The translations under genes were made by a program, and so were the position numbers. Below, piece by piece: positions 2,769 through 36,790 of a stretch of DNA of 64,000 nucleotides; within the stretch, counting starts at the first letter, position 1; the number at the start of each line of letters is the position of its first letter. The notes under the pieces were generated by a model, which searched no databases, was not told where the DNA came from, and saw only the letters and a list, made by a program, of their open reading frames with translations. Origin of the DNA: Corallococcus coralloides (GTDB lineage: Bacteria > Myxococcota > Myxococcia > Myxococcales > Myxococcaceae); assembly GCF_004104415.1 (NCBI RefSeq), contig NZ_CP034669.1. One strand, given 5' to 3'.

Positions 2769-3929
2769 TCAGCGCATGCCTTGGACCAGCGTCCATAGCT
2801 GGCGTCTCGCGGCCGACTGCGGGACTCGCCGGAATAGTGCATCACGGACAAAGCGCGCGGCGCCATTCTCCCACTGGGCCATACGTCCCACCTGATGTGA
2901 GCGCACGACCAGCGCGTTGGCACGTTTCACCCGGCGGGCTTCGTATGCACGCAGTGCGTCTTCCACGCTGCCCGGCGCCGCGAGACATTCCCCCAGCACC
3001 ACGCCGTCCTCGATGGCCTGACAGCCGCCCTGCCCCAGGTTCGGCGTCATCGGATGCGCGGCGTCCCCCAGCAGCGTCACCCGGCCCCGGCTCCAGTGCG
3101 ACACCGGAGGACGGTCGTGGATGTCCGTGCGCAGGACGCGCTCGGGCGGCGTCGCCGCGAGCAGCTTCGCGATGGGCGCGTGCCATCCGGCGAAGCGCTC
3201 CTGGAGGATGGCGAGCGTCTGTCCCGGTGCATCCTCCGCCCCCGCGGGCGCATTCAGCGTGGCGAACCAGTACACCTCGCCATGGCCAATGGGCACGATG
3301 CCGAAGCGGGCCCCGGGGCCCCACGTCTCGGTGACCTGGCCCGCGGGCACCAGGTCCGCGCCCGGACAGACACCGCGCCAGCTGGTGTAGCCGGAGTAAC
3401 GCGTGGGCTGCGCGCCCAGCAGGCCGGTCCGCACGGCGGAGCGCAGGCCATCCGCGCCCACCAGGACATCGCCGGTGACGGTCTCGCCAGTGGACAGCGT
3501 CACCGTGACGCGGGCCCCGTCGTCCTCGAAGCCCGTCACGCTGACCCCCAGCCGCACCGCCTCCTCCGGGCCCGCGTGAGCGCGAAGGACGGCCTGGAGG
3601 CGCGCGCGGTGCATGGCCACCATCGGGATGGCCAGCTCCTCCTGGAGCGAGCGAACATCAACAGCGGTGATCCGGGCGCCCGTCGAATCGAGGATGAGGG
3701 TCTGCTCCGCGCGTTCGCCCTCCGCGACCACCGCGTCACACAGGCCGATGCGGCGCAGGGCGACCGCGGCGTTCATCTGCACGACGATTCCCGCGCCCAC
3801 CGGCCGCAGGGCTTCGGCGCGTTCGAACACCGTGGCGCGAAGGCCCGCGCGCTGGAGCGCACAAGCCAGCGTGAGGCCTCCAATGCCGGCTCCGGCGATG
3901 AGGACGTGGCGGGGGGATGCGGACGTCAT
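2769..3929 (-). CDS. FAD-dependent monooxygenase (UbiH/salicylate-hydroxylase-like)
   Basis: An N-terminal GAGIGGL dinucleotide-binding motif is present. A DG motif and a GDAAH FAD-binding motif follow. Length is 386 aa. Confidence 0.85.
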   Translation of the reverse strand: MTSASPRHVLIAGAGIGGLTLACALQRAGLRATVFERAEALRPVGAGIVVQMNAAVALRRIGLCDAVVAEGERAEQTLILDSTGARITAVDVRSLQEELAIPMVAMHRARLQAVLRAHAGPEEAVRLGVSVTGFEDDGARVTVTLSTGETVTGDVLVGADGLRSAVRTGLLGAQPTRYSGYTSWRGVCPGADLVPAGQVTETWGPGARFGIVPIGHGEVYWFATLNAPAGAEDAPGQTLAILQERFAGWHAPIAKLLAATPPERVLRTDIHDRPPVSHWSRGRVTLLGDAAHPMTPNLGQGGCQAIEDGVVLGECLAAPGSVEDALRAYEARRVKRANALVVRSHQVGRMAQWENGAARFVRDALFRRVPQSAARRQLWTLVQGMR

Positions 3930-3959
3930 GGCGGCCTCCGGTCATGCCGGCGCCACGGG

Positions 3960-4808
3960 TCAACCGAACCAGCGGCCGGCGTCAGGCGCGAAGACTCGCA
4001 CGCGTTCGAGCAGCGACGCAGGCAGGCGGGCCTGGAGCGTCGCGTGGACCTGCGCGGGGCTGTAAGCCTGACTGAAATGCATCAGGACCAGGGCCTCGTT
4101 CTGGAAGCGGTCCGCCATGGAGGCGATCTCCTCCAGGTGGATGTGGGCCCGCTCCTGCGCGTCGCGCACGGTGCGCTCCGCGTCGATGAACGTGCATTCG
4201 AGGATGAGCACGCGGCTGTCGAACAGCGACGGCTGGCGCTCCAGCACGTTGGAGAGGGTGTCCGTGCAGTAGGCCAGCTCCAGCCGCTCGACTTCATCGA
4301 ACAGTGGCTCACCGGCCTGACGGCGGCGGCCAATCTCCGCCGGAGGCAGCTCGCGGAACTCGGGCTTGAGCTTCGCGACGCGGCGCAGGAACTGGTAGCC
4401 CAGCGACGGCACGGGATGGTGCGTGCGAAACGCGCGGACCCACACGTCCTGCTGCACCTTCACGGTGTCACCGGGGCGCAACGGGACAGTGCGGATGTCG
4501 GACTTCATCCGGTGCAGCCGCCCCAGGGCCGCGAGCGCCTCCTGCACGGGCGCTTCAATCTCCGCCGGCAGGTAGACGAACGGCGGCCCCCTGCCCACGA
4601 GCGCGCGGATGCCCAGCAACGAGCCCAGCGCGCTCGCATGGTCCGCATGCCCGTGGCTGAGGAAGATGCGGTCCGTGGTGGCGAAGGAGCGGATGGGGAT
4701 GCCCGCGTCGAGCAGCACCCCCAGCTCCGGCACCAGGAGCGACGTGTACACGCCGCCCACGGACACGCCGCGCACGGTATAGGGCCCCGCCTGCACCTCG
4801 GTCAGCAT
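3960..4808 (-). CDS. MBL-fold metallo-hydrolase (RNase Z-like)
   Basis: It carries an HGHADH (HxHxDH) metallo-beta-lactamase motif. A C-terminal His cluster and HIHLEE are also present. Confidence 0.8.
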   Translation of the reverse strand: MLTEVQAGPYTVRGVSVGGVYTSLLVPELGVLLDAGIPIRSFATTDRIFLSHGHADHASALGSLLGIRALVGRGPPFVYLPAEIEAPVQEALAALGRLHRMKSDIRTVPLRPGDTVKVQQDVWVRAFRTHHPVPSLGYQFLRRVAKLKPEFRELPPAEIGRRRQAGEPLFDEVERLELAYCTDTLSNVLERQPSLFDSRVLILECTFIDAERTVRDAQERAHIHLEEIASMADRFQNEALVLMHFSQAYSPAQVHATLQARLPASLLERVRVFAPDAGRWFG

Positions 4809-9065: not shown

Positions 9066-10481
9066 GTGGAGTATGAGCGGTGCGTGCCGCTCTCCTGCCT
9101 GCGCCGTCACCTGTCCGTCCTCGCCGTGGCCCTGACGGGCCTGGGCGCCCCCATGGCCCACGCGGACGAGGACACGCCCGTGTCCACCCCTCAACGCTCC
9201 CAGGTTGGAGATGTGACGGTGGAGGGCGCGAACAAGACGCGGTCCTCGACGGTGCGCTCGTTCGGCCAGGTGGACGTGGGCGACGAGGTGGACAGGGAGG
9301 AGCTGGAGAAGGTGGAGCGGCGCCTCCTGGCCACCGGCCTCTTCCAGGACGTCCGTGTGGGCACCGAGCCGATGGCCGACGGGCGCGTGCGGCTGGTGCT
9401 GCGCGTGAAGGACAAGGCGTCGTGGGTGGTGGCCCCCACGGTGGCCCTGTCCTCCGCGAACACCGGCGGCGGGCTGCTCTACGCGGAGAACAACCTGGGC
9501 GGCCGCGCGAAGAAGTTCGCCGTCGCGGCGCAGGTGAGCACCGGCGAGAGCGGCCTGTACGTGGGCTTCCTGGATCCCATCCTCTTCGGCCTCCCGCAGC
9601 TCAAGTTCAGCCTGGAGGGGCAGCTCAAGAGCGACCGCGTGGACGAGTACAGCATGGACCCCAGCGAGGACGACCCGGAGGTCCTCCGGCGCACGCGCTT
9701 CAACTCCGCGTCCATCAACTCCGAGCTGGGCTTCATCCTCTTCGAGCGCGTGCGCGCGGCGGCGAAGTACCGCCTGTCCAGCATCGACGGGAAGACTCCG
9801 GACCCGGAGAAGCCGGTGACGGTGCCGCCGTTCTCCACCGGCCCCGCCATGCGGGACACGTCGCTGCGCCTCATGGTGGGCCTGGACTCGCGCCAGACGC
9901 TGCACGCGGTGACGGAGGGGCTCAACCTGGAGGCCTCCTACGAGGTGTCCAGCCCGGGCGTGTGGAGCGAGTTCGACTACCGCAAGTTCGGCCTCCTCTA
10001 TCGCCACGGCATCCGCCTCTTCGAGGAGAACAACCTGGTGCTGCGCGGAGAGCTGGTCCTGGGCAGGGACCTGCCCTTCCACCAGGAGCTGGTGATGGGC
10101 GGCACCACGCTGCGCGGCTTCCAGTACCGGCAGTTCCGCGGCGACAGCCGGCTCACCTTCACGGCCGAGTACCACTTCCCCCTCTTCAAGGTGCAGTCGC
10201 TGGCCTTCCGGGGCGTGGCCTTCTCCGACACGGGCGCCATCGCGTGGAGGGACGTGGCCGAGGATGGGCTCCTGATCGACGCCAACGGACGCGTCATCCG
10301 CGACTACCTGCGGGTGACCATCACGGGCCAGAACCCCGTCACCGTGGCCCAGGGCGTGGGCGGGGGCCTGCGGCTGTACCTCAACAACGTCGTGCTGCCC
10401 CTGTTGGGCGTGGACGTCGCCTACGCCGTCAACTCCGGCCAGGTGCGCTTCTACCTCGTGGCCGGAGTCACGCCCTCTTGA
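9066..10481 (+). CDS. Omp85-family outer membrane protein with one POTRA domain (BamA/TamA/TpsB-like)
   Basis: A signal peptide ends in AHA. A POTRA-like segment (VGDVTVEGANKTRSSTV...LLATGLFQDV) is followed by a beta-barrel with alternating hydrophobics ending in an aromatic-rich C-terminus. Confidence 0.7.
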   Translation: MEYERCVPLSCLRRHLSVLAVALTGLGAPMAHADEDTPVSTPQRSQVGDVTVEGANKTRSSTVRSFGQVDVGDEVDREELEKVERRLLATGLFQDVRVGTEPMADGRVRLVLRVKDKASWVVAPTVALSSANTGGGLLYAENNLGGRAKKFAVAAQVSTGESGLYVGFLDPILFGLPQLKFSLEGQLKSDRVDEYSMDPSEDDPEVLRRTRFNSASINSELGFILFERVRAAAKYRLSSIDGKTPDPEKPVTVPPFSTGPAMRDTSLRLMVGLDSRQTLHAVTEGLNLEASYEVSSPGVWSEFDYRKFGLLYRHGIRLFEENNLVLRGELVLGRDLPFHQELVMGGTTLRGFQYRQFRGDSRLTFTAEYHFPLFKVQSLAFRGVAFSDTGAIAWRDVAEDGLLIDANGRVIRDYLRVTITGQNPVTVAQGVGGGLRLYLNNVVLPLLGVDVAYAVNSGQVRFYLVAGVTPS

Positions 10482-10490
10482 AGCAGGCCG

Positions 10491-11582
10491 CTAGCCGGCG
10501 CGGGCAGCGCTCGCGTCCGCTTCCGGCGCAGGCTCCGGAGGCAGCACCACGCCGGGCCACGCCTCCGGCGGCAGGTCCAGGCTGAACGGCGGAGACTCGC
10601 CGCGCACCGTCCACCAGAGCGCCTTGTCCGCGCACAGCGCCTGCGCGATGCGGCCGGACGTCGTGCGGACGCGCTCCACGACGGCCTGGTGCTCCTCGGG
10701 CGTCTGCGCCTCCAGCATCGCGACGACGTTGTCCCAGACGCGCTGCCGCCAGACGATCAGCATCCGCATCACCGCCCGCTCCACCACCGGGCGGCTGAAC
10801 GGCACGCGCAGGAGCAGCCGCGTGGACGCGCACTGGTAGCGCTCCGCGAGCAGGTCCACGCACTCCGGGATGCACGAGCGGAGGATCTCGTTCACGTGGA
10901 AGTAGTCGTGCCGGTAGCGCGCCATGCGGCGTGCATCCGCCGGCGGCGACTGGTGGGCGATGTTGTCGTAGACGACCATTCCCAGGTCGTGGTTGATGTG
11001 GGCGCTCACGCCCAAGAGCGCGTCCTGGTACGGCTGCGTGAGGCCCTGGGCCGGGTAATGCGTCGCGAAGCGCCACGCCGCGGTGGGCAGCGGCAGGTTC
11101 TTCAGCGAGTCCCGCACCGCGATGAGCGCCTCTTCCGCGAAGCGGCCCGTCAGGTGGGACAGCCACTCGGGTTCGAGGAAGCCGCCCGCGTCCTCCCGGC
11201 TCAGCAGGTGGACGACCTTGCGCGTGACGATGGCGTAGATGTCCAGGAAGATGGCGCGTGAGTCATTGCGCGCGTTCAGCCGGGCGAGGATCTTCTCCAG
11301 CCCCTCCAGCGCCTCCTCCGCGTTGACCGGGTTCCAGAGCACGTCATCCAACCGGATGGGCCCCTGCGCATCCGGGGCTTTTGTCTCGTGGAGGTGAAGC
11401 GGCTGGGGGCGCTGCGACCGATGAGCCGAGGGAGAGGCCGGTGAAACATTCATGGAATGACGCTCCGCGGGGTGGGGGAACGACTTCGCATGAAAGCTTA
11501 TATCAACCGGTACTTCCTGTGACACCCGCCCACTCCGGGAGGGATGGGTTGTTTCACCTGACCCCCGCGTGTGGACACTCAC
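10491..11582 (-). CDS. hypothetical protein
   Basis: A long ORF with GC3 bias lies downstream of the cytochrome genes on the same strand. The start is ambiguous; the internal MNVSPAS is possible. Confidence 0.55.
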   Translation of the reverse strand: MSVHTRGSGETTHPSRSGRVSQEVPVDISFHAKSFPHPAERHSMNVSPASPSAHRSQRPQPLHLHETKAPDAQGPIRLDDVLWNPVNAEEALEGLEKILARLNARNDSRAIFLDIYAIVTRKVVHLLSREDAGGFLEPEWLSHLTGRFAEEALIAVRDSLKNLPLPTAAWRFATHYPAQGLTQPYQDALLGVSAHINHDLGMVVYDNIAHQSPPADARRMARYRHDYFHVNEILRSCIPECVDLLAERYQCASTRLLLRVPFSRPVVERAVMRMLIVWRQRVWDNVVAMLEAQTPEEHQAVVERVRTTSGRIAQALCADKALWWTVRGESPPFSLDLPPEAWPGVVLPPEPAPEADASAARAG

Positions 11583-11612
11583 GCGGGGGCCAATGTCACA
11601 CCGCTGTCAAAC

Positions 11613-12866
11613 TCAGGGCGCGGTGCCTTCACTCACGGTGCCGCCCGTCCTGCCCAGCACGTACCTGGCCAGCGCCAGGGCGTTGTTCTCGTCGACGAGG
11701 GACTCGTAGGTGGGCATCTGCGTGCCGGGCTTGAAGGACTCCGGGTTGCGGATCCACTTCGCCACTTCCTCCGGGGCCTTGCCCTTGGCGCCCTGGAGCT
11801 TGGCCTCGAAGGCCTTGCCGGGGGCGTGGCAGGTGGCGCAGCCCAGGGAGCTGAACATCTTCTCCGGGTCGTTGGAGGGCTCCGCCTTGGGGCGGCCACC
11901 CGCGGGAGGCGGCACCACCGTGTCGTTGGGCTTCATGGAGCGCAGGAAGGTGTAGAGGGCCGCGAGCTCCACGTCGTCCGCGTAGCGGTACTTGGGCATG
12001 GGCGGGCGCAGGATGTAGCCGCCCGGCGTCACGCCCGTGATCATGGCGTGCTTGAACTCATCCAGCGTCCACTTGCCGATGCCGGCCGTCTCGCTGACGC
12101 TGATGTTGGGCGACAGCAGCTTGCCCTCGCCGCCCAGCGGCACCAGGTCGAACTCGAAGCCGCCGCTCAGCACCGTGTCCGGGTGCTGCAACTTCACGGC
12201 GCTGCCGTCGAAGCCCGGCGAGTGGCAGAAGACGCAGTCGTAGACGCTGCCGGCCAGGTAGCGGCCGTACTCCACGGAGTCCGCCGCCTTCGCGGGCACG
12301 GGCACCGGCTCCGTGCGGCCCTTGTCGTTGATGCCCATGGCGAACGCGAACACCATCCGGCCCGGGGGCGTCAGCTCGGAGCGCGGCGGCTGGAACTTCT
12401 CCGGCGCGAAGTCCGGGTGCCCGGAGCGCATGAAGCCGATGACCGCCGCGATGTCCTTGTCACCCATGTTGGGGAACGCGGGCATGGGACGGAAGTGGTG
12501 GCTCTTGTCGATGCCGTTGATCACCATCCGGGCGATCTCCTGGTCCGTCCAGGCCCCCACGCCCTTCTCCATGTCGGAGGTGATGTTCGCGGAATAGAAC
12601 GTGCCCAGGTCTGGCGGGAAGTCGTGCATCCGGCCGCCCACGGGCTTGGTGTTGCCACCGCCCGCGTGACACTCCGCGCACACCGCGCGGAACACCTGCT
12701 CACCGCGGGCAATGCCCTCCGGCGAGCTGTCGCGCGTGATGTTGGGCAGCGCGACATAGTCATACGTCTTGTTGATCTTGTGGCTGGCCACGCCCATGGC
12801 GGTACCCGCGCCAATCAGGACCAGGGCGACCAACGCACCAATGGCGATCAGGATCTTCTTCATCAT
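11613..12866 (-). CDS. membrane-anchored trihaem c-type cytochrome
   Basis: The start MMKKILIAIGALVALVLIGAG is a signal anchor. Three CXXCH motifs are present: CAECH, CVFCH and CATCH. Confidence 0.85.
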   Translation of the reverse strand: MMKKILIAIGALVALVLIGAGTAMGVASHKINKTYDYVALPNITRDSSPEGIARGEQVFRAVCAECHAGGGNTKPVGGRMHDFPPDLGTFYSANITSDMEKGVGAWTDQEIARMVINGIDKSHHFRPMPAFPNMGDKDIAAVIGFMRSGHPDFAPEKFQPPRSELTPPGRMVFAFAMGINDKGRTEPVPVPAKAADSVEYGRYLAGSVYDCVFCHSPGFDGSAVKLQHPDTVLSGGFEFDLVPLGGEGKLLSPNISVSETAGIGKWTLDEFKHAMITGVTPGGYILRPPMPKYRYADDVELAALYTFLRSMKPNDTVVPPPAGGRPKAEPSNDPEKMFSSLGCATCHAPGKAFEAKLQGAKGKAPEEVAKWIRNPESFKPGTQMPTYESLVDENNALALARYVLGRTGGTVSEGTAP

Positions 12867-12967
12867 GGGGAACGCTTCTCCGGATGAACGGGGACGGCAC
12901 ACGGCGCCGCTGCCTGCTCCACGGGGAGGAGTGGACAGCCGCGCCGGTGTTGGGACGGGTGAGGCGG

Positions 12968-14110
12968 CTACTGGCCCGGCAGGCAGGTGCTGGGCGGGGG
13001 AATCTGGGGCGTCGTCGAGGGCGTCTTGCTGTACATCTGGAGGCCGGCGAACGTCACCGTGCCCGGGGCCACGGGAAGATCCAGCGGCTGGAGCACCCAC
13101 GGGCGCCCTTCCGGGTCGCTCGTGGTGGAGTCCTTCGCTTCGTAGTGGACCACCGGCGGCGGCCCCGGCGGCGACGGCGGGTGGACGACGGCGACGATGC
13201 CCAGGGAGCTGTTGGGCGCCGGCGGCCCCGGCGGGATGAAGAAGCCACGCGTGGACTGGAACGGCGCCAGCGGCGGCGGCAGGGCCCCCACGGGCGCCCA
13301 CTCGATGTTCAGCACGCGGCCCGCGCTGGCCTCCACGGTGGTGTTCGCCGCAGGCACGCGGAAGACGGGGAAGCCCGGCCGGTACAGCCAGAACACCGTC
13401 ACGCCGCCGAACTTGGCGGAGTCGAGCAGGTCCGCCACCGGGATGGGGACGTCGGGGGTCGAGCTCTCCGCGGTCAGGTACTTCGCGACCGCCTCCAGGA
13501 TGCCCTTGTCGCTCATCTGCAGGGCCTCCAGGCCCACGCAGGCGCTGTGCGCGGGCACCACCGGCCGCACCGTCAGCGTGGACACATAGCTGCCCTCCGG
13601 AACGGGCGGCAGCGGCGGCAGTGGCGGCTGCGCAGGGGCATTATTGGCCAGCGTGCCGCTCGGTATCGGCGGCATCTCCGTCGACACCAGCGACAGCACG
13701 AAATACGGCGCGCCCCGGCGCGTGGGGACCTTGTCGAGGGTCCAGACGCCATTGGCGTCCGACGCCGTGATCACGCCGCTCGCCGCGAGCGGCTGGCCCG
13801 TGGCGGAGTCCAGCAGGGTGATGGCCGCGTTCTTCACCACCGCGCGCTGCAAGAGCGGGCTGAACTCCGCGTACAGCGGCGGCAGTGGGCACTGCGCGGG
13901 AGGCGGAGCGCAGGCTGCCAGGTTGAAGAAGTAGGCCTCCGGGTCCACGGTGAAGCCGTTCAGCCGGGAGGTGAGGCCCTCCGGCTCGCGGTTCTCATAC
14001 GTGGGGCGCGGCGTGAACGTGGACGCCGCGGGGTTGTTGGAGGAGTCCTGGCAGCCGGCGTTCAGCAGGGCCGCGCCGAGGAGCGTTCCGACGAAGAGAG
14101 CTCTTTGCAT
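12968..14110 (-). CDS. Pro-rich lipoprotein, function unknown
   Basis: The signal MQRALFVGTLLGAALLNAGC carries the lipobox LNAGC. It has many PPxP tracts. Confidence 0.7.
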   Translation of the reverse strand: MQRALFVGTLLGAALLNAGCQDSSNNPAASTFTPRPTYENREPEGLTSRLNGFTVDPEAYFFNLAACAPPPAQCPLPPLYAEFSPLLQRAVVKNAAITLLDSATGQPLAASGVITASDANGVWTLDKVPTRRGAPYFVLSLVSTEMPPIPSGTLANNAPAQPPLPPLPPVPEGSYVSTLTVRPVVPAHSACVGLEALQMSDKGILEAVAKYLTAESSTPDVPIPVADLLDSAKFGGVTVFWLYRPGFPVFRVPAANTTVEASAGRVLNIEWAPVGALPPPLAPFQSTRGFFIPPGPPAPNSSLGIVAVVHPPSPPGPPPVVHYEAKDSTTSDPEGRPWVLQPLDLPVAPGTVTFAGLQMYSKTPSTTPQIPPPSTCLPGQ

Positions 14111-14125
14111 GGCGGGTGGCTTCCC

Positions 14126-16036
14126 CTACTTCGCGGGGAGGATGTGGCTGGCGGGAAGCTGATCGCCGCCGTGGCAGGTCTGCGCGCAGTTGCCGAACCG
14201 GCTGGGCGTGCCGCGCTGGTTGAAGGCGATCTGGAAGAACTCATCCCCGTGCTGGGAGATGTGGCACGAGCCGCACAGCGACAGGCTGGGACGCTCCGTG
14301 CTCTTGCGCGTCAGGTGGCACACGGTGCAGTCCGCGCGGTTGGCCGGATAGCTGGGCGAGTTCATGTGGATGCGGTGCACCATCTCCTGCGTGCGGCCCA
14401 CCGTGTCCGTGTCGTAGTGGTGGCAGACCTTGCAGCTCTCGATGTGGTCCACCGACAGGCCGTGGCGCAGGTTGTCCAGCGACAGCACGCCGCGGTGGCA
14501 GATCTGGCAGTTGCCCACGTTGCCCGGGTACGTCGTCGGCTCGTCCTGGCCCACCTGGAAGAAGAACGGGTTCAACTTGGCGACGCGCTCGCCCAGGGCC
14601 GCGCGGTTGAACTTCACCAGCGCCACGTAGGTGCCCGGCTTCGCGTTCGCGGGCAGCGTGAACGTCTGGCGGGTGGGCCACTTGTAGTCGATGAGGCCCG
14701 GCGTCAGCCCCGTGAGCGTGGCGTCATCCAGCATGGCGAACGGGAACGGCCGCGCGAAGAACTCGGGCTTGTCGCTGGGGTTGCCCAGCACCTTCAGGTC
14801 CTGGATGGGGCCGGCGATGGCCACGTTGGAGATGGAGTCGTTCTCCGTGACGGTCGCGATGACGTTGGGCACGAAGGTCTGGATGCCGTTGGACTGGCCT
14901 CCGATGATCTCCCGCGCGCTGGGCAGCAGGTCGCGCGAGTGCAGGTGCGCGCCCGCGCTGTCGCGCAGGTCCACGTAGACGCTCACGTCCTCGCCGGGCT
15001 TGTAGAAGCTGCCCTCCTTCGGAGGCGAGAACACCAGCCGCGAGTCCAGGCCCGGGCTGCACTGCACCGGGTTGCCGGCGTCGTCGGTGCAGGTGGACGG
15101 GCGGTCATCCGGGATGATGTACGTGACGGGGAAGAAGAACGGCTTGTCCGGCAGCTGGCTCCAGGTGGCCTTGAGCGCGCCGGGACCCGACAGGCGCGGC
15201 ACGCGCAGCACCTTGAAGGGGTTGGTGCTGCCCACCCAGTCCACGCGCGCGATGGTGCGCGTGATGGCGCTCTGGTCCAGGCCGCCCGCGAAGCCCGTCA
15301 CGGTGCCGGGGTCCTTGTCGCCGGGGAAGCGCGGCGGCTTCAGGTTCTCCGACCGCCAGGAGAAGCGGCTGTGGCCGGCGTAGGGCGAGGAGGCCAACAG
15401 CTCCGAGCGCAGGTACGTCTGGCTCGCGCGCGGGGTGCCCGTCTCGTCCAGCACCTCCACGGTGATGGTGTCGTCCTTCACCTTCTGCCAGTTCGCGTTG
15501 CCGAACTGCACCTCGCGGGTCCAGCAGTCCTCCACGGCGCCCGCGAGGCTGTAGAAGCTCCACTCGTCCGGGCCCTGGTTGACGTTGGCCCAGTCCAGGC
15601 CCGCGAACACGGACTCGTTCTTGATCCACCCCAGCGCGGCGGTCTGGTCGTTGGGGTTGTTGTGCTGGTTGACCACGGTCTCCGACACGGAGAACTGGTT
15701 CAGGAAGTACTGGGTGTCCGACAGGATCTGCAGCGTCCCAGTAGGAGGCGACAGCGTCAGCGGGTTCTGCGCGAGCGGCGTGATGCACATGTCCGGGTAC
15801 GAGCCGGTCACGCTGTTCTTCGCCACCATCTGCCCGTTGGGCAGGAAGGCGCAGCCGTTGATGTACTGGAGGCTCAGCCGGATCGCGCCGGAGTTGAGGC
15901 CCTGGTACGGGTCGAACCGTTTGGCACCGCGGCCCGTGGTGGACCCCTCGTCGTCAGTGACCTTGAGGAGGTTGCAGGACAGCAGGGGCACCAGCAGGGC
16001 GCACCACGCGCTCTTCAACAGGATTGAGCGGTTCAT
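14126..16036 (-). CDS. multihaem c-type cytochrome lipoprotein (large N-terminal domain plus C-terminal pentaheme module)
   Basis: The lipobox is LLSC. The C-terminal 130 aa carry CQICH, CKVCH, CTVCH and CGSCH, plus an atypical CAQTCH (CX3CH). Confidence 0.8.
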   Translation of the reverse strand: MNRSILLKSAWCALLVPLLSCNLLKVTDDEGSTTGRGAKRFDPYQGLNSGAIRLSLQYINGCAFLPNGQMVAKNSVTGSYPDMCITPLAQNPLTLSPPTGTLQILSDTQYFLNQFSVSETVVNQHNNPNDQTAALGWIKNESVFAGLDWANVNQGPDEWSFYSLAGAVEDCWTREVQFGNANWQKVKDDTITVEVLDETGTPRASQTYLRSELLASSPYAGHSRFSWRSENLKPPRFPGDKDPGTVTGFAGGLDQSAITRTIARVDWVGSTNPFKVLRVPRLSGPGALKATWSQLPDKPFFFPVTYIIPDDRPSTCTDDAGNPVQCSPGLDSRLVFSPPKEGSFYKPGEDVSVYVDLRDSAGAHLHSRDLLPSAREIIGGQSNGIQTFVPNVIATVTENDSISNVAIAGPIQDLKVLGNPSDKPEFFARPFPFAMLDDATLTGLTPGLIDYKWPTRQTFTLPANAKPGTYVALVKFNRAALGERVAKLNPFFFQVGQDEPTTYPGNVGNCQICHRGVLSLDNLRHGLSVDHIESCKVCHHYDTDTVGRTQEMVHRIHMNSPSYPANRADCTVCHLTRKSTERPSLSLCGSCHISQHGDEFFQIAFNQRGTPSRFGNCAQTCHGGDQLPASHILPAK

Positions 16037-16284
16037 GGAAGACGAGGCCGGGGGGAGTCAGGGGGAGGAAAGGGAGCAGGTATCCTCACGCGCGGGCCCA
16101 CGCGACCCACCATTCCCGACGACGCCAGCGCTCCGCCACGCGGAGATGGTGAGGATCGGGAGGGGTTGGGAGGAGAACACCTCATCGGTTCAAACTGACC
16201 ACATTATGAGAGTCCGCGCAATTCGTGGACTTCAGATCGCCCGGAGGACTGGAGCCCCGCGGGCGGGTGACCCAGGGCGTCGGA

Positions 16285-17211
16285 CTAGAGGCTGAGGCCG
16301 ACGGACAGGAGCAGCGCGAAGACGAGCCCCAGCGCCGCCGTCTTCCCCAGGTGGGGGTTGAGCGCACCGCCATCCTCACGCCAGATGGCGCGGATCTGCC
16401 TCACCGCGAGCGGCAGGGCCGGCAGCGTGAAGAGCCAGGCCCGGCCGTGCTCGGGCAGGAGCAGCCAGGCCGCTACCGGGAGCGCGAACGCGCCCCCCAC
16501 CGCCACCGTGTACTCCCAACGCCCGAAGCGTTGGCCGAAGCGCACCACCAGCGTGCGCTTGCCGGCGACCACGTCCGTCTCGCGGTCGCGCAGGTTGTTC
16601 ACCGCGAGGATGCCGGCGGAGAACAGCCCCATGGACAGCCCCGCCAGCAGCACGGCCGGCGTGACGTGGTGGGTGAGCACGACGTAGCTGCCGCTGACCC
16701 CCAGCAGGCCGAAGATGATCAGCACCAGCACGTCCCCCATCCCCAGGTAGCCCAGGGGGATGGGGCCCGCGGAGTAGAGGACCGCGCCCGCCAGACAGAA
16801 GGCGCCGCCCGCGAACACCGTCCAGCCCTCCGCCCGGGTCAGCAGCAGCAGCGCCAGCGACGAACCGGTGAACGCCAGCGCCGCGGCCGTCGCCACCTCA
16901 CGCGCGGTGAGCCAACCCTTCTGCGTGACGCGCGCGGGCCCCAGGCGCGCCTCGGTGTCCGCGCCCCGCTCGAAGTCCGCGTAGTCGTTCACCAGGTTGC
17001 TCACGATCTGCATGAGCACGAAGCCCACCAGGAACGTGAGCGCCGGAGCGAGCCGCCATTGCCCCTCCGCGTTGGCGAAGGCCCACCCCAGCACCGTGGG
17101 CGCGATGGAGGCCGTCAACGTCTTGGGGCGCAGCGCGAGCCACCAGATGCGGGCGAGCGAGGGCTTGGCTTCGACCGCGACACTCGACGAAGGGAGACTC
17201 GAAGTGGTCAT
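16285..17211 (-). CDS. menA: 1,4-dihydroxy-2-naphthoate octaprenyltransferase (UbiA superfamily)
   Basis: It has the NDxxDxxxD-type motif NLVNDYADFERGAD. Eight to nine TM helices are predicted. The second Asp-rich region NNLRDRETD is present. Confidence 0.85.
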   Translation of the reverse strand: MTTSSLPSSSVAVEAKPSLARIWWLALRPKTLTASIAPTVLGWAFANAEGQWRLAPALTFLVGFVLMQIVSNLVNDYADFERGADTEARLGPARVTQKGWLTAREVATAAALAFTGSSLALLLLTRAEGWTVFAGGAFCLAGAVLYSAGPIPLGYLGMGDVLVLIIFGLLGVSGSYVVLTHHVTPAVLLAGLSMGLFSAGILAVNNLRDRETDVVAGKRTLVVRFGQRFGRWEYTVAVGGAFALPVAAWLLLPEHGRAWLFTLPALPLAVRQIRAIWREDGGALNPHLGKTAALGLVFALLLSVGLSL

Positions 17212-17464
17212 GGATGTCCGGGGGAGGGAAGCAGGCGCACGGTAAAGCTACAGGCCCGTGAACCGCAAGAGGAGCCAATGATTCACATCGGTTCTCCTCA
17301 TGTATCACCTGTCGCAAGCCTCCACGCTCCGTCGCAGACGCAGTGTGTCGACAATCCGCCCGGCCTCGATGCGACACAAAGGCAGACGCCAGTCCTATTT
17401 CGGGCAAATTCGAGAACAATCAGAAATACCAGCCATCCTGCCCGTTGGATGCTAGAAGGGAGCC

Positions 17465-18154
17465 ATGAACCCGACCTCCTTCCCTTCCTCCCCTCCCCTT
17501 TCGAGCCGGAGCACCCTGACGGTGCTGGGCGCGTTCGTGCTCGCACTCGCCGGCTGTCATCCGGTGCTCTCCATCGAGGATGCGCGCTCGCGCTCCAACG
17601 GCTCGGAGGTGACGGTGGAGGGCTCGGTGACCGTGGCGCCCGGCACGTTCTCCTCCGCCCTGGGCGACGAGGGCTTCGCCATCCAGGACGACACCGGCGG
17701 CATCTACGTCAAGCTGGAGGAGAAGCTGCCCTTCGGCCTGGGCGCCCGCGTGCGCGTCACCGGCACGCTGGACGAGCAGAACCGGCTGCGCATCCTCAAG
17801 AGCGTGCCCGAGGACGTGGACCTGAAGTCGGGCACGGAGCAGGTGTCGCCCCAGGAGCTCACCACCGGCGGCGTGAACGAGTCCGTGGAGGGCGAGCTCA
17901 TCCGCGTGAGCGGCGCCATCACCCAGGCGTTCCAGGACGACTCGCCCTACGGCTACAAGCTCTACATCGACGACGGCACCGGCGAGGTGCAGGTGTTCGT
18001 CCACGTGTCCGCCGGGTTCGACAAGGCCGCGCTCCAGGCCCTCACCGTGGGACAGCGCATCGCCGTGGTGGGGCTCGCCGCGCAGTATGAGACGACCTAC
18101 GAGGTGGCGCCCCGCATGCCGGGCGACCTCTCCGTGCAGAACGCCGCGCCCTGA
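17465..18154 (+). CDS. hypothetical lipoprotein
   Basis: The signal peptide carries the lipobox LAGC. The sequence reads as a beta-rich soluble domain. Confidence 0.65.
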   Translation: MNPTSFPSSPPLSSRSTLTVLGAFVLALAGCHPVLSIEDARSRSNGSEVTVEGSVTVAPGTFSSALGDEGFAIQDDTGGIYVKLEEKLPFGLGARVRVTGTLDEQNRLRILKSVPEDVDLKSGTEQVSPQELTTGGVNESVEGELIRVSGAITQAFQDDSPYGYKLYIDDGTGEVQVFVHVSAGFDKAALQALTVGQRIAVVGLAAQYETTYEVAPRMPGDLSVQNAAP

Positions 18155-28881: not shown

Positions 28882-29100
28882 GTTTCAAGGATCTATCAGC
28901 CCGCCCCCCACACGAGATAGGTCCTCCTGGGTCGTCCGCTGCCACCGGAAACACGCGGAGAGTGCGGCGCGTATGACGGAGATCCTTTGCCAGCGCCCGG
29001 ACTCCGGGTGATCCTCCTCCGACGAAGGGGGACGCGGTCCGGCAGGTGAAACCATGAGCGCGAGCGCCGTTGCACCCGCGCCGCCGCCGGGCCCGCTCGC

Positions 29101-30516
29101 ATGCGCATCGCCATCATCGCCACGTACACCCATCCGACCCGGCTGCGAATCAAGGAACCCTCCATCATGCAGTCCTCCGTGCCGGAGCTCATCGCGGGCC
29201 TGTGCCCGGAGCACGCGCAGGTGGAGATATTCAACGAGAAGGAGGCGGACCTGCCGTTGGACCGGCACTGGGACCTGGTCTTCTTCTCGTACCTGCACTC
29301 GTACTACGAGCACACCAAGGTCCTCTCCACCCTCTTCCGTCAGCGCGGCATGACGACGGTGGCGGGAGGCCGGCACGCGAGCCACTTCCCCGACGACGCG
29401 GCGAAGTACTTCGACGCGGTCATCACCGGGGAGCCGGAGTCCAACGTGCCCGCGCTCATCGCGGACTTCGAGAAGGGCGAGCTCAAGCCCCGCTACAGCC
29501 TGCCGTCACAGGGCGCCGCGGCCATCCGGCCGTACCGCTACGAGCTCATCGACTTCACGCACAACAAGGTGCGCCTGCCGGGCATCGAGGCGTCGCGCGG
29601 CTGCCCCTTCACGTGCAACTTCTGCGTGCTCACCGGCCACGAGCGCTACCGCTTCCGGCCCATCCCGGAGGTCATCGACGAAATCCAGACGCGCATGCGC
29701 TGGAACCCGAACTTCCTGGGGTTGATGGGGGACGCGTTCGTCTTCCTGGACAACAACCTGGGCGGCTCGCCCAAGTACCTGCGCGCGCTGTGCGAAGCGC
29801 TCATCCCCTTGAAGAAGACGTGGGGCTGCGCGCTCACCTTCAACGTCCTAAAGGATGAGTCGCTGGTGAAGCTGATGGCGAAGGCGGGCTGCCGCTACGT
29901 CTACACCGGCCTGGAGTCGCTCAACCCGGAATCGCTCAAGGCGATGAACAAGGGCCAGAACAAGCTGTCGGAGGTGGACGCCGTCATCCGCCGCGTCTTC
30001 TCCGCCGGCATCCTCTTGTCCTTCGGGCTCATCGTGGGCTCGGACGGCGACACCAACGAGTACCTGCACCGGCTGCCGGACTACCTGGCGGACCTGAAGT
30101 ACTTCTCCGTCACGTTCCTGGGAATCGTGTGCCCGTATCCGGAGACGCCCTTCTTCCGCGAGCTCAAGGCGGAGGACCGGCTTCTGCCCGGCACCACCAG
30201 CCGCGACTACGACGGCTACACGCTGTGCCACCGGCCCAAGCAGATGCACGCGTCGGAGGTGGTGGAGCACTTCCAGCGGCTGTGCCACACGCTGGGCAGC
30301 CTGCCCAACATCGCGCGGCACTACGCGTCCAAGCTGATGATGAGCGACCTGCCCCGCTACAAGCAGACCATCCTCTTCTCCGGGCCCGAAATCGTCAGCG
30401 TCCGCAACCCGGTGAAGAACCCGGAGCGCCGCTACATCGCGGGGCTGGATGCGATCGAGGCGTGGGACGCGGAGCGGATGCCCGCGCTGGGCCTCACGCC
30501 GCAGGTCCTGACCTGA
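29101..30516 (+). CDS. B12-binding radical SAM protein (class B)
   Basis: An N-terminal Rossmann-like B12 domain is present. The radical SAM cluster motif reads CPFTCNFC (CxxxCxxC). Confidence 0.8.
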   Translation: MRIAIIATYTHPTRLRIKEPSIMQSSVPELIAGLCPEHAQVEIFNEKEADLPLDRHWDLVFFSYLHSYYEHTKVLSTLFRQRGMTTVAGGRHASHFPDDAAKYFDAVITGEPESNVPALIADFEKGELKPRYSLPSQGAAAIRPYRYELIDFTHNKVRLPGIEASRGCPFTCNFCVLTGHERYRFRPIPEVIDEIQTRMRWNPNFLGLMGDAFVFLDNNLGGSPKYLRALCEALIPLKKTWGCALTFNVLKDESLVKLMAKAGCRYVYTGLESLNPESLKAMNKGQNKLSEVDAVIRRVFSAGILLSFGLIVGSDGDTNEYLHRLPDYLADLKYFSVTFLGIVCPYPETPFFRELKAEDRLLPGTTSRDYDGYTLCHRPKQMHASEVVEHFQRLCHTLGSLPNIARHYASKLMMSDLPRYKQTILFSGPEIVSVRNPVKNPERRYIAGLDAIEAWDAERMPALGLTPQVLT

Positions 30517-31324
30517 GCCGGGACGGCAGGCGCACGTCCCACGCCAGCCCCAGGGCCTGGAGCGCCCGGATGAAGAGCCAGCCCGGGTCCCACTGCCACC
30601 ACACCCAGCCGTGCCGCGCGGACGCGGGGAAGGCGTGGTGGTTGTTGTGCCAGCCCTCGCCCAGCGCGAGCACGCTCACCCACCACACGTTGCGGCTGTG
30701 GTCGCGCGTGTCGTGGTCGCGGTGGCCGAACGCCGCGTGGCACACGGAGTTCACCGCGTAGGTGCTCTGCATCCAGCACACCACGGGCAGGAAGAAGTAC
30801 GCGGGCACCGTGCGCCAGCCGAACGTCAGCCCCACGAAGAGCACCCCCAGCACCTGCGGCGCGATGCGGTAGCGCAAGAGCCAGTGGTAGTAGCCGTCAT
30901 CCGCCATGTCGCGGCACCAGGTGCGCCAGCCGTCCTCTTCCGTGGAGGCCTCGTTGAGGATCCACCCCATGTGCGCGTACCAGAAGCCGCGCAGCGGCGA
31001 GTGCACGTCCCCGTCCGCGTCCGCCTTCGCGTGGTGCAGCCGGTGGTTGGCGGCCCACAGGAGCGGGCTGCCCTGCGCCGTGAGCATGGCCACCGTCACC
31101 AGCGCGTACTCCACCCAGCGGGGGCACGCGAAGGCGCGGTGGCACAGCAGCCGGTGCAGCCCCACCGTCGTGCCCAGGCCAATGGAGACGTACACGGCCA
31201 GCGCCACCGGCAGCGCGTACGGCGGCCAGGGCAGGAAGAACGCCAGCGCGGCCAGCCCGTGGACCACGAGCATGTAGCTGACGATGACGGGACTGAGCTG
31301 GAAGCGGAGCGGCGCGGTGTTCAT
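30494..31324 (-). CDS. acyl-CoA (stearoyl-CoA-type) desaturase
   Basis: Its His boxes are HRLLCHRAF, HRLHHAKAD and HNNHHAF. The start was chosen at MNTAPLRFQ. Confidence 0.85.
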   Translation of the reverse strand: MNTAPLRFQLSPVIVSYMLVVHGLAALAFFLPWPPYALPVALAVYVSIGLGTTVGLHRLLCHRAFACPRWVEYALVTVAMLTAQGSPLLWAANHRLHHAKADADGDVHSPLRGFWYAHMGWILNEASTEEDGWRTWCRDMADDGYYHWLLRYRIAPQVLGVLFVGLTFGWRTVPAYFFLPVVCWMQSTYAVNSVCHAAFGHRDHDTRDHSRNVWWVSVLALGEGWHNNHHAFPASARHGWVWWQWDPGWLFIRALQALGLAWDVRLPSRLRSGPAA

Positions 31325-31394
31325 GGGCCCGGTGCGGAGTCGAGGAAGGAGCACGCAGTCTAGGGGCCCCGCCTGACGGGACAAGGAATGCGCG

Positions 31395-34300
31395 TCACAT
31401 CACGCGGGCGTCACGGACCTGGGAGGCCTGGGGCGGCACGAGCGCTTCGGCCGGCGGGGCCTGGAGCGGGGCCTGGAGCGTGGCCTGGAAGCGGTCCATG
31501 CGGCGCAGCTCCGCGCGGGCCTCCACCTCCGTGAAGATGGCGCGCGCCTTCGCGAGGAAGTCCTCGCGCCGGTGCGGCAGGGCCACCGCCGCGTCGAAGT
31601 AGGCCACGCCCGTCTCCCAGCGGTTGGGGCTCTTCTCCAGGACGGCGATGGCCTCCAGGAACACCGGCTCCGCGGCCTTGGGGCCCTTGCGCAGGGCCAG
31701 GGAGCGCGCCGTCACGCGCAGCGCCGGGCCCTTCAGGTACGGATAGAGCCGCGCGATGACGCGCGCCTTGATGCAGGACAGGCGGACAATCCTCAGCAGC
31801 TCCTTGCGCGGCACCACCGTGGCGCCCTCCTCCAGCGCGAAGAGGGCCGCCTCCGCCGCGTCCACCAGCCCCACCTGGAGGAACGGCACCAGCACCTGGT
31901 AGCTCCAGATGCTCTTGAAGCAGCGCACCGCGACGAGCGCGGCCTCCTCCACCTGGTGCTCGCGCACCGTGACGTTGGCCAGGTGGTTCAAGCTGGCGCA
32001 CTGGTTGGCCAGGTCCGCCACCTCCTCGCTGATGCGCAGCCCCTGCTCCAATTCCGCGCACAGCTCGCCCACGTCCCCTTCGCCCATGAGGTAGCGGCAC
32101 ATGGGCGCCCACGAGTGCGCCCAGCCCTGGTGCATCAGCGCGTTGAGCTCCACGCCAATGGTCCCCATCTGCTCGTAGAGCGCCACCGCGGTGCGGAAGC
32201 GCGAGTGGAGGAACTCGCCCGTGGCCTGCATCATCAGCGACGTCTGGCGCTCCCAGCGCTCGCCCACCTGGCGCAGCGTGGAGACGGCCTCCTCCTGGAA
32301 GGCCCGCGCGCGCTCCAGCTCGTTGGCGAAGAAGGCCTGGATGCCCAGGCGGCTGAGCGCGAGCCCCTCCGCCACCGGGTCCTTGGAGCGGCGCGCGTAC
32401 TCCAGCGCCTTCTCGCAGTGGTAGCGCGAGCGCTTGAGCAGCCCCGCGCCGAACAGGAGCGTGCCGTAGTAGCCGCGCGCCAGGCTCATGGCGTAGTCGC
32501 TGCGAGAGCGCTCCGCCATGTTGGTGGACACCAGCGTCGCCCAGGTGAGCTTGGTGATGTCCGCGAAGTAGTAGATGCGGATGAGCGAGTTGAGCGTGGA
32601 CAGCTGCTGCAGGTAGTTGCCCAGCCTCGCCGCCGGCAGCGGGCGCAGGATGAAGGGCAGCAGCGACGCGAGCCCTCGCAAGAGGAGGTTGGCCAGCGTG
32701 CGCAGGCCCAGCGCGGCCAGGCTCCCCGGGAGGCTGCGGCCCCGCAGCACCAGGGACTTCTCCAGGTGCTGCGTGGCGAGCGCGGACTCGCCCTTCTCCT
32801 GGTGCGCGCGGCCCAGGCCCAGGTGCAGCTCCGCCTGGCGCGGGGGCTCCTCCTCGTCCACCAGGCACTGCTCGAACATCAGGATGGCGTTGGCGTAGTG
32901 GCCCGCCTGGAGCAGCGTCTCCGCCAGCTCCTGCATCACCCGGCGCGTCTGGAGCAGCGTCACCTCCGGGTCCACCGGGACGACGGTGCCCAACAGCTCC
33001 AGGCCGCGGTTGTAGTGGTAGAGCGCGTCGTCGTTCGCGTACTGCGCCCGCGCGCTGCGGGCCGCCATCAGCGTGTACGCCAGCCCCTTGTCCTCCACGT
33101 TGCCCGCGAGGAAGTGGAACGCGAGCAGACCCGCGGAGCCCGCGAGGTTGTCGTTGGCGCGGGCCTCCAGGTAGCGCGCGAGCCGGCGGTGCAGGTCCTC
33201 ACGCGCCGACACCAGCAGCGTGTTGTAGGCCACGTCGCGGATGACGATGTGCTTGAAGAGGCAGGTGTACGGCTCCTCCGTCTCCAGCAGGATGAGGCCC
33301 AGGCGCTGGAGCGTGTCCATGGCCTCGCGCAGCACGCCGTGGCCCAGGGTGGGCACCAGCGCCGCCACCGCGTCCAGCGTGAAGATGCGCCCGATGACGG
33401 ACGCCACCTTCACCACCAGCTTCTCCGTCTCGCTGAGCAGGTCGATGCGCGACAGCACCACGTCCTGGATGGAGTCCGGCAGGATGAGGTCCTGCAGGCC
33501 GCGCTTCAACTCCATCCGTGTGGAGCCGGGCTCCGCCAGCCCCAGGTAGCCCTGCTCCGCCAGGCCCTCCACGATGGATTCGATGAAGAACGGGTTGCCC
33601 TGCACCTTCGCGAGCAGCCGGTCCTCCAGCGCGACGTCCGGCGGCGACAGGCGCAGGTGCACGCGCAACAGCGCGCGCGTATCCTCGTCGTCCAGGCTCG
33701 TCAGGTCCAGCGGGACGAACTCCGGCAGGTCGCGCATCCCCCGGAGCTGGTCGCCCGGGCGCATCGTCGCCAGCACCATGATGCGGTGCGAGCCCACGCG
33801 CACCGCCAGGTACTGGAGCAGGTCCAACGAGATGTAGTCCGCCCAGTGCAGGTCCTCGAAGAAGAGCAGCAGCGGCTGCGCGCGGCTGAGCTTCTCCAGC
33901 AGCTGGAAGACGAGCTGAAACACCTTCTGCTGCTTGCGCCGAGCGTCCATCCCCGCCGTGGCGGACGTCTCCTCCAGCGACATGCCGAGGATGCCCGCGA
34001 CCACGGGGATCCACTCCGGCCCCACGTCCTCCAGGCCCTCCAGCCCCTGCCGCAGGCGCGCGAGCTGCGCCTCGGTGTCGTCCGAGTCGTGCAGTCCGAA
34101 CGCCTGGAGCAGCACCTCCTTCCAGGGGAAGAAGGGGGTGAAGGCCTCGTAGGAGTAGCAGACGCCGTACAGCGCGCGGGCGCCGCCCTCCTCCGCGTCC
34201 TCCAGCACGCGCGCGCCCAGGCGCGACTTGCCGATGCCCGCCTCGCCGGACACCACGCACACGCGGCCCTGGCCCGCGAAGGACGCGGTGAGCGATTCGT

Positions 34301-35708: not shown

Positions 35709-35726
35709 CCGTCAGGGGCTTTCCGC

Positions 35727-36128
35727 TCAGGACAGGTTGGCGAAGCGCAGGTACAGGGCGCCCAGGCACATGGCGCCGTAGAGGGGGATTTCCGCCGTCT
35801 CCGGCCAGGGCTGCTGCTTCTTCACCGCGCCCCAGACGTGCACCGCCGTCATCAGGCCCCCAATGAGGCCGATGAGCTCGAAGATGACCAGGTGGCTCTT
35901 GGGGTCCGGGATGAACTGCACCACCGCGATGATGACGGACAGCGCCAGGCCGCCCAGGCAACGCGCGAAGTAGACCGTCAAATCATTGTTGCCCGTGGGC
36001 AGCTCCCACCCGAACCAACGCGCCCAACGCAGCGGGATGAACAGCAACGGCAGTGCGTAGACCAGCAGGAAGACCGAGGTGGAGACCGCGAGGAACCAGC
36101 TGGCCAGCGGATAGTCGGGGTTGATCAT
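35727..36128 (-). CDS. small integral membrane protein (4 TM), function unknown
   Basis: Hydrophobic segments are present with GC3 bias. Confidence 0.55.
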   Translation of the reverse strand: MINPDYPLASWFLAVSTSVFLLVYALPLLFIPLRWARWFGWELPTGNNDLTVYFARCLGGLALSVIIAVVQFIPDPKSHLVIFELIGLIGGLMTAVHVWGAVKKQQPWPETAEIPLYGAMCLGALYLRFANLS

Positions 36129-36259
36129 GATGGCGGACGTGATGGGTGACGGACGTGCACCCGCGGCGCACCCCTCCCCACGCCGTCCATCCTAGAATCT
36201 TTTGCCACCCCGTGGGGCGGCTTCCCCCCGCCAAGGCCCTGCTTGAGCCCGCCTGCCGC

Positions 36260-36790
36260 CTAGCGGGTGGCGGCCAGGAGGAACTCGGCCACCCGCTCCA
36301 GGGAGGTGGTGCGCTCGGCCTCCGCCGGGAAGCGCCGGAACACCTCCGGTGGCCCGTGCAGGATGAGCGGCTTGCCATAGCGCAAGGCCAGGACGGCCTC
36401 CGCCGCGGTGCCGGCGCCCCCGGGCAGCGCGACCAGCGCGTGCGGCGTCAGCACGTTGATGTGGTTGCGGCTCATGGGGTCCGTGCCCTGCTCCCCGCTG
36501 AGCGGCAGGTGCGTGTAGATGGGGATTTCGATGTCCGTGTTCGGGTAGCCGGGCCGGGGCTGGTAACGGCCATCCGCGCCCACGGTGCCGGGGATGATGC
36601 CGATGGCCGCCCCCCGCCGCCCCTCCACCTGGACGAAGGCCCCCGCCGCCGCGCTCATGACGCCGCCGCCCGCGCCGGTGAGCAGGTCGAACCCGGCCTC
36701 CGCGATCCACCGCGCCAGGGGGACGACCCACTCTTCGTGGGAGTGCGCCCCGGAGCCGAACACTCCGATGATGCGGCGGTATCTGCGCAT
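36260..36790 (-). CDS. LOG / TIGR00725-family Rossmann-fold nucleotide-binding protein
   Basis: An N-terminal VFGSG motif is present. A PGGxGT motif reads LPGGAGTAAEA. Confidence 0.65.
   Translation of the reverse strand: MRRYRRIIGVFGSGAHSHEEWVVPLARWIAEAGFDLLTGAGGGVMSAAAGAFVQVEGRRGAAIGIIPGTVGADGRYQPRPGYPNTDIEIPIYTHLPLSGEQGTDPMSRNHINVLTPHALVALPGGAGTAAEAVLALRYGKPLILHGPPEVFRRFPAEAERTTSLERVAEFLLAATR

Follow-up and report, generated by a model that had tools for sequence, protein, structure and literature searches.

The 64,000-nucleotide stretch of Corallococcus coralloides DNA analysed here (contig NZ_CP034669.1; hereafter the window) carries on its minus strand a compact set of genes comprising menA and genes for a lipoprotein with five haem sites (the pentaheme lipoprotein), a proline-rich lipoprotein without haem motifs (the partner) and a triheme cytochrome c. 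The pair formed by the pentaheme lipoprotein and its partner is the conserved unit of this module, and the rest varies by clade. Judged by its sequence relationships, the module is a previously uncharacterised, myxobacteria-specific relative of the MtrC-type cytochromes. Our overall model, to which we give even chances, is a haem relay across the periplasm that would connect the inner membrane, in one direction or the other, with an MtrC-like cytochrome at the outer membrane.

Confined to residues 508–636 of the pentaheme lipoprotein are all of its haem motifs: C510QICH, C535KVCH, C570TVCH, C588GSCH and C617AQTCH. The five haem sites claimed in the original prediction are therefore all present, the last of them as CX3CH rather than CXXCH. 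Among 55 homologues, the five motifs and residues H525, H554, H557, H596 and H631 are invariant or nearly so, and because five additional conserved histidines suffice for five haems, all five are probably bis-His ligated. Also invariant in this set are Cys21, which closes the lipobox (...LLSC21), and four further cysteines (Cys62, Cys84, Cys316 and Cys326).

In the AlphaFold2 model of the protein (predicted local distance difference test score (pLDDT) of 82, predicted template modelling score of 0.83), residues 14–43 are unstructured, residues ~50–500 are all-β with pLDDT mostly >90, and a helical haem domain follows. The haem-free N-terminal region, ~450–480 residues long rather than the 500 first proposed, is modelled as a chain of immunoglobulin (Ig)/macroglobulin-like β-sandwich domains, and the propeller that had been suggested for it is not seen. 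Between the lipidation site and the sandwiches is a linker (residues ~21–45) that has pLDDT <50 yet contains a conserved motif, GRGAKxFDPY; residues E30, G35, R36, G37, F41, D42, P43 and Y44 are invariant. This motif, which is missing from the consensus of the more distant relatives described below, may serve in docking or sorting.

The relationship to MtrC resides in the haem domain. At E ≤ 0.01, the Pfam family PF22113, to which the Shewanella proteins MtrC, OmcA, MtrF and UndA belong, matches 49 of the 55 family members (best E-value 2.6e-7). A profile of the pentaheme family searched against all Protein Data Bank (PDB) sequences matches MtrC and MtrF only (E ~1e-3), and in that alignment haem motifs 1–4 and the intervening histidines are colinear. 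The haem domain thus appears to be remotely homologous to domain II of MtrC/MtrF, that is, to one pentaheme domain of MtrC/OmcA. No close PDB relative was found for either of the cytochromes, and literature searches returned no paper on the pentaheme lipoprotein family.

Compared with the Shewanella proteins (PF22113; PDB 6qyc, 6r2q, 3pmq, 4lmh and 3ucp), with which it shares a lipoprotein signal and to which its haem domain appears remotely related, the protein described here has one pentaheme domain and 5 haems instead of 10–11, the last of them at the CX3CH site. In place of the four-domain architecture of two barrels and two pentaheme domains, it has ~450 residues of unrelated Ig/macroglobulin-like sandwiches. 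It further differs in its obligate haem-free partner lipoprotein and in its hosts, which are aerobic myxobacteria. With five haems, a score of 17.9 bits against the OmcA/MtrC decaheme model TIGR03507 (cut-off 209.3), and no gene for an MtrA-type periplasmic decaheme cytochrome or an MtrB-type porin among the neighbours in 63 loci, the module falls, on sequence criteria, outside the OmcA/MtrC family of decaheme cytochromes. In its proposed mode of action it comes closest to an MtrC-type outer-membrane cytochrome that is fed by one in the inner membrane.

The 63 loci compared are those with enough downstream sequence, and in 62 of them a homologue of the partner lies directly 3′ of the pentaheme gene. 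The sole exception, locus L049 (MAG_AAO_H10.6), has no detectable partner lipoprotein directly downstream; this locus carries two pentaheme paralogues 5 kb apart (2873–4594 and 10001–11872). The partner is proline-rich and has a lipobox (LNAGC20) and no haem motif. Besides Cys20, four cysteines (67, 74, 191 and 376) are invariant; these and the four further invariant cysteines of the pentaheme lipoprotein could form disulfides. By structure prediction, the partner is composed of transthyretin-like β-sandwiches, with no porin or barrel.

The pentaheme family is small and was found only in Myxococcota genomes and metagenome-assembled genomes (MAGs). A word-indexed search with the pentaheme protein gave 112 matches; when 1.84 billion cluster representatives were searched with a profile, 216 matched at E ≤ 1e-3, and only ~16 of these are full-length representatives. 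Named members are of the Myxococcaceae/Archangiaceae type (Corallococcus, Myxococcus, Pyxidicoccus, Archangium, Hyalangium, Vitiosangium and Citreicoccus); no pentaheme locus was found in Anaeromyxobacter. Beyond the family proper is a wider tier of relatives, for example from Pendulispora and a Deltaproteobacteria MAG, that share the C-terminal arrangement of four CXXCH and one CX3CH motifs and the lipobox, and have other N-termini. At two wider-tier loci, L072 and L073, the cytochrome gene has no partner-like gene after it, and metagenome scans for the genomic context of such relatives found nothing. In the Deltaproteobacteria MAG (JACRCV010000016.1, L073:8001–13947), the gene for the 649-residue relative shares 4 bp with the beginning of a gene for a TonB-dependent receptor, and next to it, on the other strand, is a second MtrC-like cytochrome gene (575 residues). 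This arrangement is a single pointer that hints at an outer-membrane, possibly metal-related, role.

Around the conserved pair, several gene orders are seen. In Corallococcus the order is menA, pentaheme, partner, triheme and, in some loci, a DUF5995 gene, and in three other Corallococcus species the triheme gene lies 8 kb upstream of the pair. Loci of the Hyalangium type run menF, triheme, pentaheme, partner, SnoaL and menD-H-A-C-E, with shikimate genes upstream; in a MAG locus (L048), menA on the opposite strand is followed by triheme, pentaheme, partner and menF. At about a dozen loci the pair stands alone among unrelated neighbours. In a large clade of Myxococcus, Pyxidicoccus and Archangium, the order is a Rieske/VanA_C oxygenase gene, often a gene for a diheme lipoprotein cytochrome, and then the pair. 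This diheme cytochrome shows homology (27–32% identity) to domains one and two of the triheme protein. Taken together, a membrane-anchored, multidomain class-I cytochrome is encoded in the same co-directional cluster as the pair at 38 of the 63 loci (our own tally of locus labels), in both major clades and in several gene orders.

Linkage to men genes occurs in three arrangements, in Corallococcus and in other genera. In a neighbour-joining tree, all men- or triheme-linked loci fall into one clade, interspersed with lineages that have neither, and the linkage would most simply have arisen once and then decayed. Synteny, proposed as a check in the original prediction, holds for the pair at 62 of the 63 loci; the linkage to men and triheme genes is confined to one clade, and at most loci the two lipoprotein genes occur without it. 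At L001 and L027–L066 (Myxococcus, Pyxidicoccus and Archangium), the gene preceding the pair is always that of the Rieske/VanA_C-type oxygenase, which has no signal peptide, and convergent TldD/PmbA genes come after the pair. In several clades, genes related to aromatic compounds or quinones recur nearby (men, shikimate, DAHP synthase, SnoaL, P450 and IDO), which may be chance.

Downstream of the partner gene in the window, across a gap of ~100 bp (101 bp) without a terminator-like site, is the gene for the triheme cytochrome. Three CXXCH motifs and three methionines (M128, M290 and M384, one per domain) are invariant among 26 homologues, and with one such methionine in each CXXCH domain all three haems are His/Met ligated. 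The N-terminus is a hydrophobic helix; throughout the family there is a hydrophobic anchor of this kind or, in a few members, a lipobox. Pfam matches are to PF13442 (71 bits) and PF00034, covering class-I and cbb3-subunit-III-type domains. The best PDB relatives are the beta subunit of FAD-glucose dehydrogenase (GDH; 8hdd chain B, 1.9e-20), the cytochrome subunit of fructose dehydrogenase (FDH; 7w2j chain C, 2.7e-18) and subunit II of alcohol dehydrogenase (ADH; 8gy2 chain B, 4.6e-15), with partial alignments that cover mainly residues 39–327; the third domain aligns poorly. In sequence, the triheme cytochrome is thus similar to those cytochrome subunits of membrane dehydrogenases that react with quinone. 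In the GDH, FDH and ADH systems, these subunits pass electrons to the membrane quinone, which is ubiquinone there; the quinone of myxobacteria is menaquinone.

Three class-I His/Met domains in one membrane-associated chain of ~400–480 residues are common to the triheme protein and these dehydrogenase subunits. The differences are that the triheme protein is anchored by an N-terminal transmembrane (TM) helix and lacks an adjacent catalytic or small dehydrogenase subunit: no dehydrogenase gene was found beside the triheme gene in the window, in related loci or at solitary triheme loci. Anchoring at the N-terminus followed by class-I His/Met domains is also seen in CcoP and in cytochromes of the cy type, from which the triheme protein differs in having three such domains, not one or two, and in having no oxidase or bc1 gene nearby; none is found near the cytochrome genes in the window.

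Upstream of the pair, on the same strand, is menA. Its product scores 189.5 bits against TIGR00751 (cut-off 102.15) and 111.5 bits against PF01040 (UbiA; cut-off 34.2), and falls under the cut-offs of the narrower PRK06080 sub-models; by these profile matches it is a 1,4-dihydroxy-2-naphthoate (DHNA) polyprenyltransferase of menaquinone synthesis. No other men gene is present among the 37 open reading frames (ORFs) scanned in the window. The adjacency of menA that had been read as a functional link is conserved in 11 of 11 Corallococcus clade-A loci, and the spacer between menA and the pentaheme gene contains a conserved, putative control element of the latter's own. In a comparison of 10 Corallococcus species or loci, the ~200 nt 5′ of the pentaheme ATG are better conserved than the 3′ end of menA, and within them is a core identical in all 10 species (Table 1). 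The core consists of a 7-bp inverted repeat, GTCC(A/G)CG-AATTG-CGCGGAC, followed by CATAAT.

In nine loci the inverted repeat lies ~190 nt upstream of the pentaheme ATG. Since this distance is kept at L040 (C. coralloides KYC2213), which has menA at a distance of 767 bp, the element belongs to the cytochrome genes. It is operator-like and may represent an operator with a promoter, or a leader. Transcription of the cytochrome genes probably starts from a promoter separate from that of menA, and menA is probably a neighbour outside their transcription unit, to which read-through from menA could still contribute. A scan for sigma-70 promoters and terminators found neither a promoter-like site nor, after menA, a terminator-like one, and is uninformative for myxobacterial promoters. 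A riboswitch or structured leader in the spacer was considered and rejected, as an Rfam search of the spacer gave no match and its folding showed no excess stability (fold-energy z = 0.04). Close to the core is a hairpin, CTCCGC-GTG-GCGGAG, with a compensatory change in L009–L011.

Sorting signals suggest where these proteins reside. In Myxococcus xanthus, a lysine at position +2 retains lipoproteins in the inner membrane, a signal that lipoproteins of the outer membrane lack (PMC3222651). At this position most pentaheme homologues have N or D and the partner here has Q; because neither lipoprotein carries the +2 lysine, an outer-membrane anchorage is predicted for both. The diheme homologues of Myxococcus have K, R or Q at +2, and these and the TM-anchored triheme cytochrome would sit in the inner membrane. 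From such sequence features we infer the localisation of the proteins, their physical partnership, the electron flow between them and any link to menaquinone.

In the model that we prefer, the pentaheme lipoprotein and its haem-free partner would act together outside the cytoplasm. The β-sandwich stalk, borne on the flexible lipid-anchored linker, would hold the five-haem domain at its far C-terminal end and bring it within reach of the inner-membrane cytochrome. In the Corallococcus/Hyalangium lineage, the triheme cytochrome would tie the inner membrane (the menaquinone pool or respiratory chain) to the pentaheme protein, and in the Myxococcus lineage the homologous diheme lipoprotein would take its place. 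The relay would operate without a porin-cytochrome of the Mtr type. Were the lipoprotein exposed on the cell surface, the haems on the stalk would face outwards. The adjacency of menA would be a relic of the module's ancestral place within or beside a men cluster and may be historical.

Several observations weigh against this model. In about 40% of the loci, the pair has no cytochrome c or men gene nearby, and given a single origin of the linkage, the differing gene orders are not independent evidence for it. The triheme gene is solitary in Sandaracinus and in Archangium gephyra, and its product may be a carrier in general use and not one dedicated to the pair. Outer-membrane placement is predicted from a sorting rule drawn from few M. 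xanthus proteins. PF22113 matches the pentaheme protein of the window with 21.9 bits (E 1.3e-4), where the gathering score is 30. The module encodes no route across the outer membrane, nor is a terminal substrate site visible in it, the β domains of the 55 homologues having no conserved metal-ligand cluster. Across the family, database names are only 'hypothetical' or 'cytochrome c'.

How the genes relate to one another, and which way electrons would move, admits several readings. The genes could be mere neighbours, with menA a housekeeping gene, the triheme protein a general carrier and the pair an independent unit of surface redox chemistry, adhesion or iron acquisition, held together by inherited synteny. 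This reading is unlikely in our estimate, though slightly less so than either direction of flow by itself. In its favour, the pair stands alone in many genomes, as does the triheme gene elsewhere, the linkage has a single clade origin, the region shares wider synteny with a radical-SAM/desaturase/cyclase/LDcluster4 block (see below), and a separate conserved element precedes the pentaheme gene. It sits less well with an anchored class-I cytochrome accompanying the pair at 38 of 63 loci, in both major clades and with varied orders and anchor types, and with the short, terminator-free gap between the partner and triheme genes. A self-contained oxidoreductase, in which the haem-free N-terminal region is catalytic or substrate-binding (propeller-like), is very improbable, the predicted β-sandwiches being no propeller; in its favour, the ~450 residues are highly conserved, include many invariant aromatic and charged residues and have a confident predicted fold (pLDDT >90).

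If the genes do form a relay, its direction has to be considered. The original prediction was of a quinol-fed conduit, in which menaquinol would reduce the triheme cytochrome, and this in turn the MtrC-like lipoprotein and then Fe(III), humics, quinone shuttles or peroxide. The haem domain does appear remotely homologous to MtrC, a terminal extracellular reductase, the triheme protein is related to quinone-reactive subunits, men genes are adjacent in two genera and their linkage recurs, and the overlap of a relative with a TonB-dependent receptor gene at L073 is a hint of a metal-related outer-membrane role. Such an outward flow is unlikely all the same, since neither a porin nor an MtrA-like partner is encoded and the partner lipoprotein forms no barrel, the hosts are aerobic with no Anaeromyxobacter locus found, and men linkage is limited to one clade. 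In terms of general haem chemistry, transfer from bis-His to His/Met haems is expected to be downhill, and transfer from the triheme to the pentaheme protein would tend uphill. That favours inward uptake, in which the pentaheme protein would take electrons from Fe(II), from humics or quinones in reduced form, or from a periplasmic enzyme and pass them through the triheme protein to an oxidase or the menaquinone pool; the ligands behind this argument are deduced from conservation and the potentials in turn from the ligands. Inward flow also agrees with the aerobic hosts, with the resemblance of a TM-anchored class-I triheme protein to membrane-anchored carriers that serve oxidases, and with the homologous dehydrogenase subunits, which carry electrons towards the quinone pool. 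It is nonetheless rather unlikely in our estimate: no site or enzyme that would oxidise a donor is encoded alongside the pair, no oxidase gene is nearby, and homology to MtrC fits either direction equally. MtrC homology and the men neighbourhood thus suggest outward flow, His/Met versus probable bis-His ligation and the aerobic life of Myxococcaceae and Archangiaceae suggest inward flow, and the proposed conduit keeps its MtrC-like haem domain and quinone-type triheme protein while losing the porin-cytochrome and any preference for the outward direction. A stronger form of the relay, a porin-independent conduit of obligately aerobic predatory myxobacteria built from half an MtrC, the partner and the triheme protein, in which the men-cluster origin is functional, seems to us improbable. 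It would couple the menaquinone pool or respiratory chain to a DHNA-derived naphthoquinone shuttle, to mineral or chelated iron, or to redox compounds derived from prey.

Known respiratory complexes do not account for the cytochromes. NCBIfam models score far under their cut-offs (CcoP TIGR00782, 27.6 versus 180; QcrC, 20.7 versus 200; HmcA, 16.6 versus 400; octaheme tetrathionate reductase, 15.1 versus 375), and orthology to such complexes, named at the outset as what would overturn the prediction, is ruled out by these scores together with the PDB searches. Porin-cytochrome conduits (MtrCAB and Geobacter Pcc/Ext) likewise combine a multihaem lipoprotein with other envelope proteins, which lie here near quinone-related genes; what the module lacks in comparison is a β-barrel porin and a periplasmic multihaem cytochrome. 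The Omp85 gene near the module is on the opposite strand and conserved only within Corallococcus.

At ~70% GC, the stretch is rich in spurious long ORFs, and the real frames were picked by third-position GC content (GC3), which at 0.80–0.97 favours them over long antisense ORFs. Three plus-strand ORFs that overlap real genes (12884–16027, 11571–12887 and 16225–18090, encoding 1047, 438 and 621 residues) were rejected as artefacts of the 70% GC. The real genes form a co-directional block of five, read from high to low coordinates (17211 to 11613 for the span of the original prediction) as menA, pentaheme, partner, triheme and DUF5995 with gaps of 248, 15, 101 and 30 bp; the gene set and same-strand order first proposed are present at the coordinates then given. 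The locus is represented among NCBI proteins of Corallococcus coralloides by a 100% identical entry (EJ065_4504).

Table 1 Coordinates of the module and of neighbouring features in the window.
Feature	Coordinates	Strand	Length	Remarks
menA	16285–17211	-	308 aa	
menA–pentaheme spacer	16037–16284	-	248 bp	conserved upstream region inside
Spacer core	16193–16225	-	33 nt	100% identical in 10 Corallococcus species
Pentaheme lipoprotein	14126–16036	-	636 aa	
Linker of pentaheme lipoprotein	15905–15976	-		GRGAKxFDPY motif
Pro-rich partner lipoprotein	12968–14110	-	380 aa	
Triheme cytochrome c	11613–12866	-	417 aa	start MMKKIL
DUF5995 gene	10491–11582	-	363 aa	PF19458 at 159 bits; beyond the span of the original prediction
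OB-fold lipoprotein	17465–18154	+		DUF5818/BOF-type; divergent from menA
Omp85 gene	9066–10481	+		single POTRA; convergent with the DUF5995 gene
Radical-SAM/LDcluster4 block	29050–36817			

The DUF5995 gene is adjacent and co-directional and is no conserved component of the module: it is found in a subset of Corallococcus loci only and is missing from L008–L011 and from all other clades. Bordering the block in most Corallococcus loci, and in no other genera, are the OB-fold lipoprotein and Omp85 genes; a divergent lytic transglycosylase gene is also located upstream. Further away in the window, 12–20 kb from the module, is a block of genes for a radical-SAM protein, a fatty-acid desaturase, an adenylate/guanylate cyclase with an AAA_16 domain (1438 residues), a 154-residue ORF and an LDcluster4 (SLOG) protein. 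At two other loci, in another Corallococcus species and a MAG (L068:13647–21353 and L069:14027–20162), this block is the immediate neighbour of the pentaheme and partner genes, a regional synteny that points to vertical descent with insertions.

Cytochromes of the MtrC/OmcA type serve as the model case for how anaerobic metal reducers transfer electrons out of the cell. If the model holds, a compact relative with a single pentaheme domain, a new stalk and an obligate partner, and without a porin-cytochrome, would broaden the range of architectures recognised for electron transfer in the envelope, and aerobic soil myxobacteria would join the organisms suspected of electron exchange with their environment. 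Should the module be only a periplasmic carrier, the gain would be a modest one in annotation, for ~200 'hypothetical' proteins. With two to three genes, the module offers a genetically tractable target in Myxococcus and Corallococcus for asking whether predatory aerobes use extracytoplasmic haem relays to acquire iron, for redox shuttling or to oxidise external donors.

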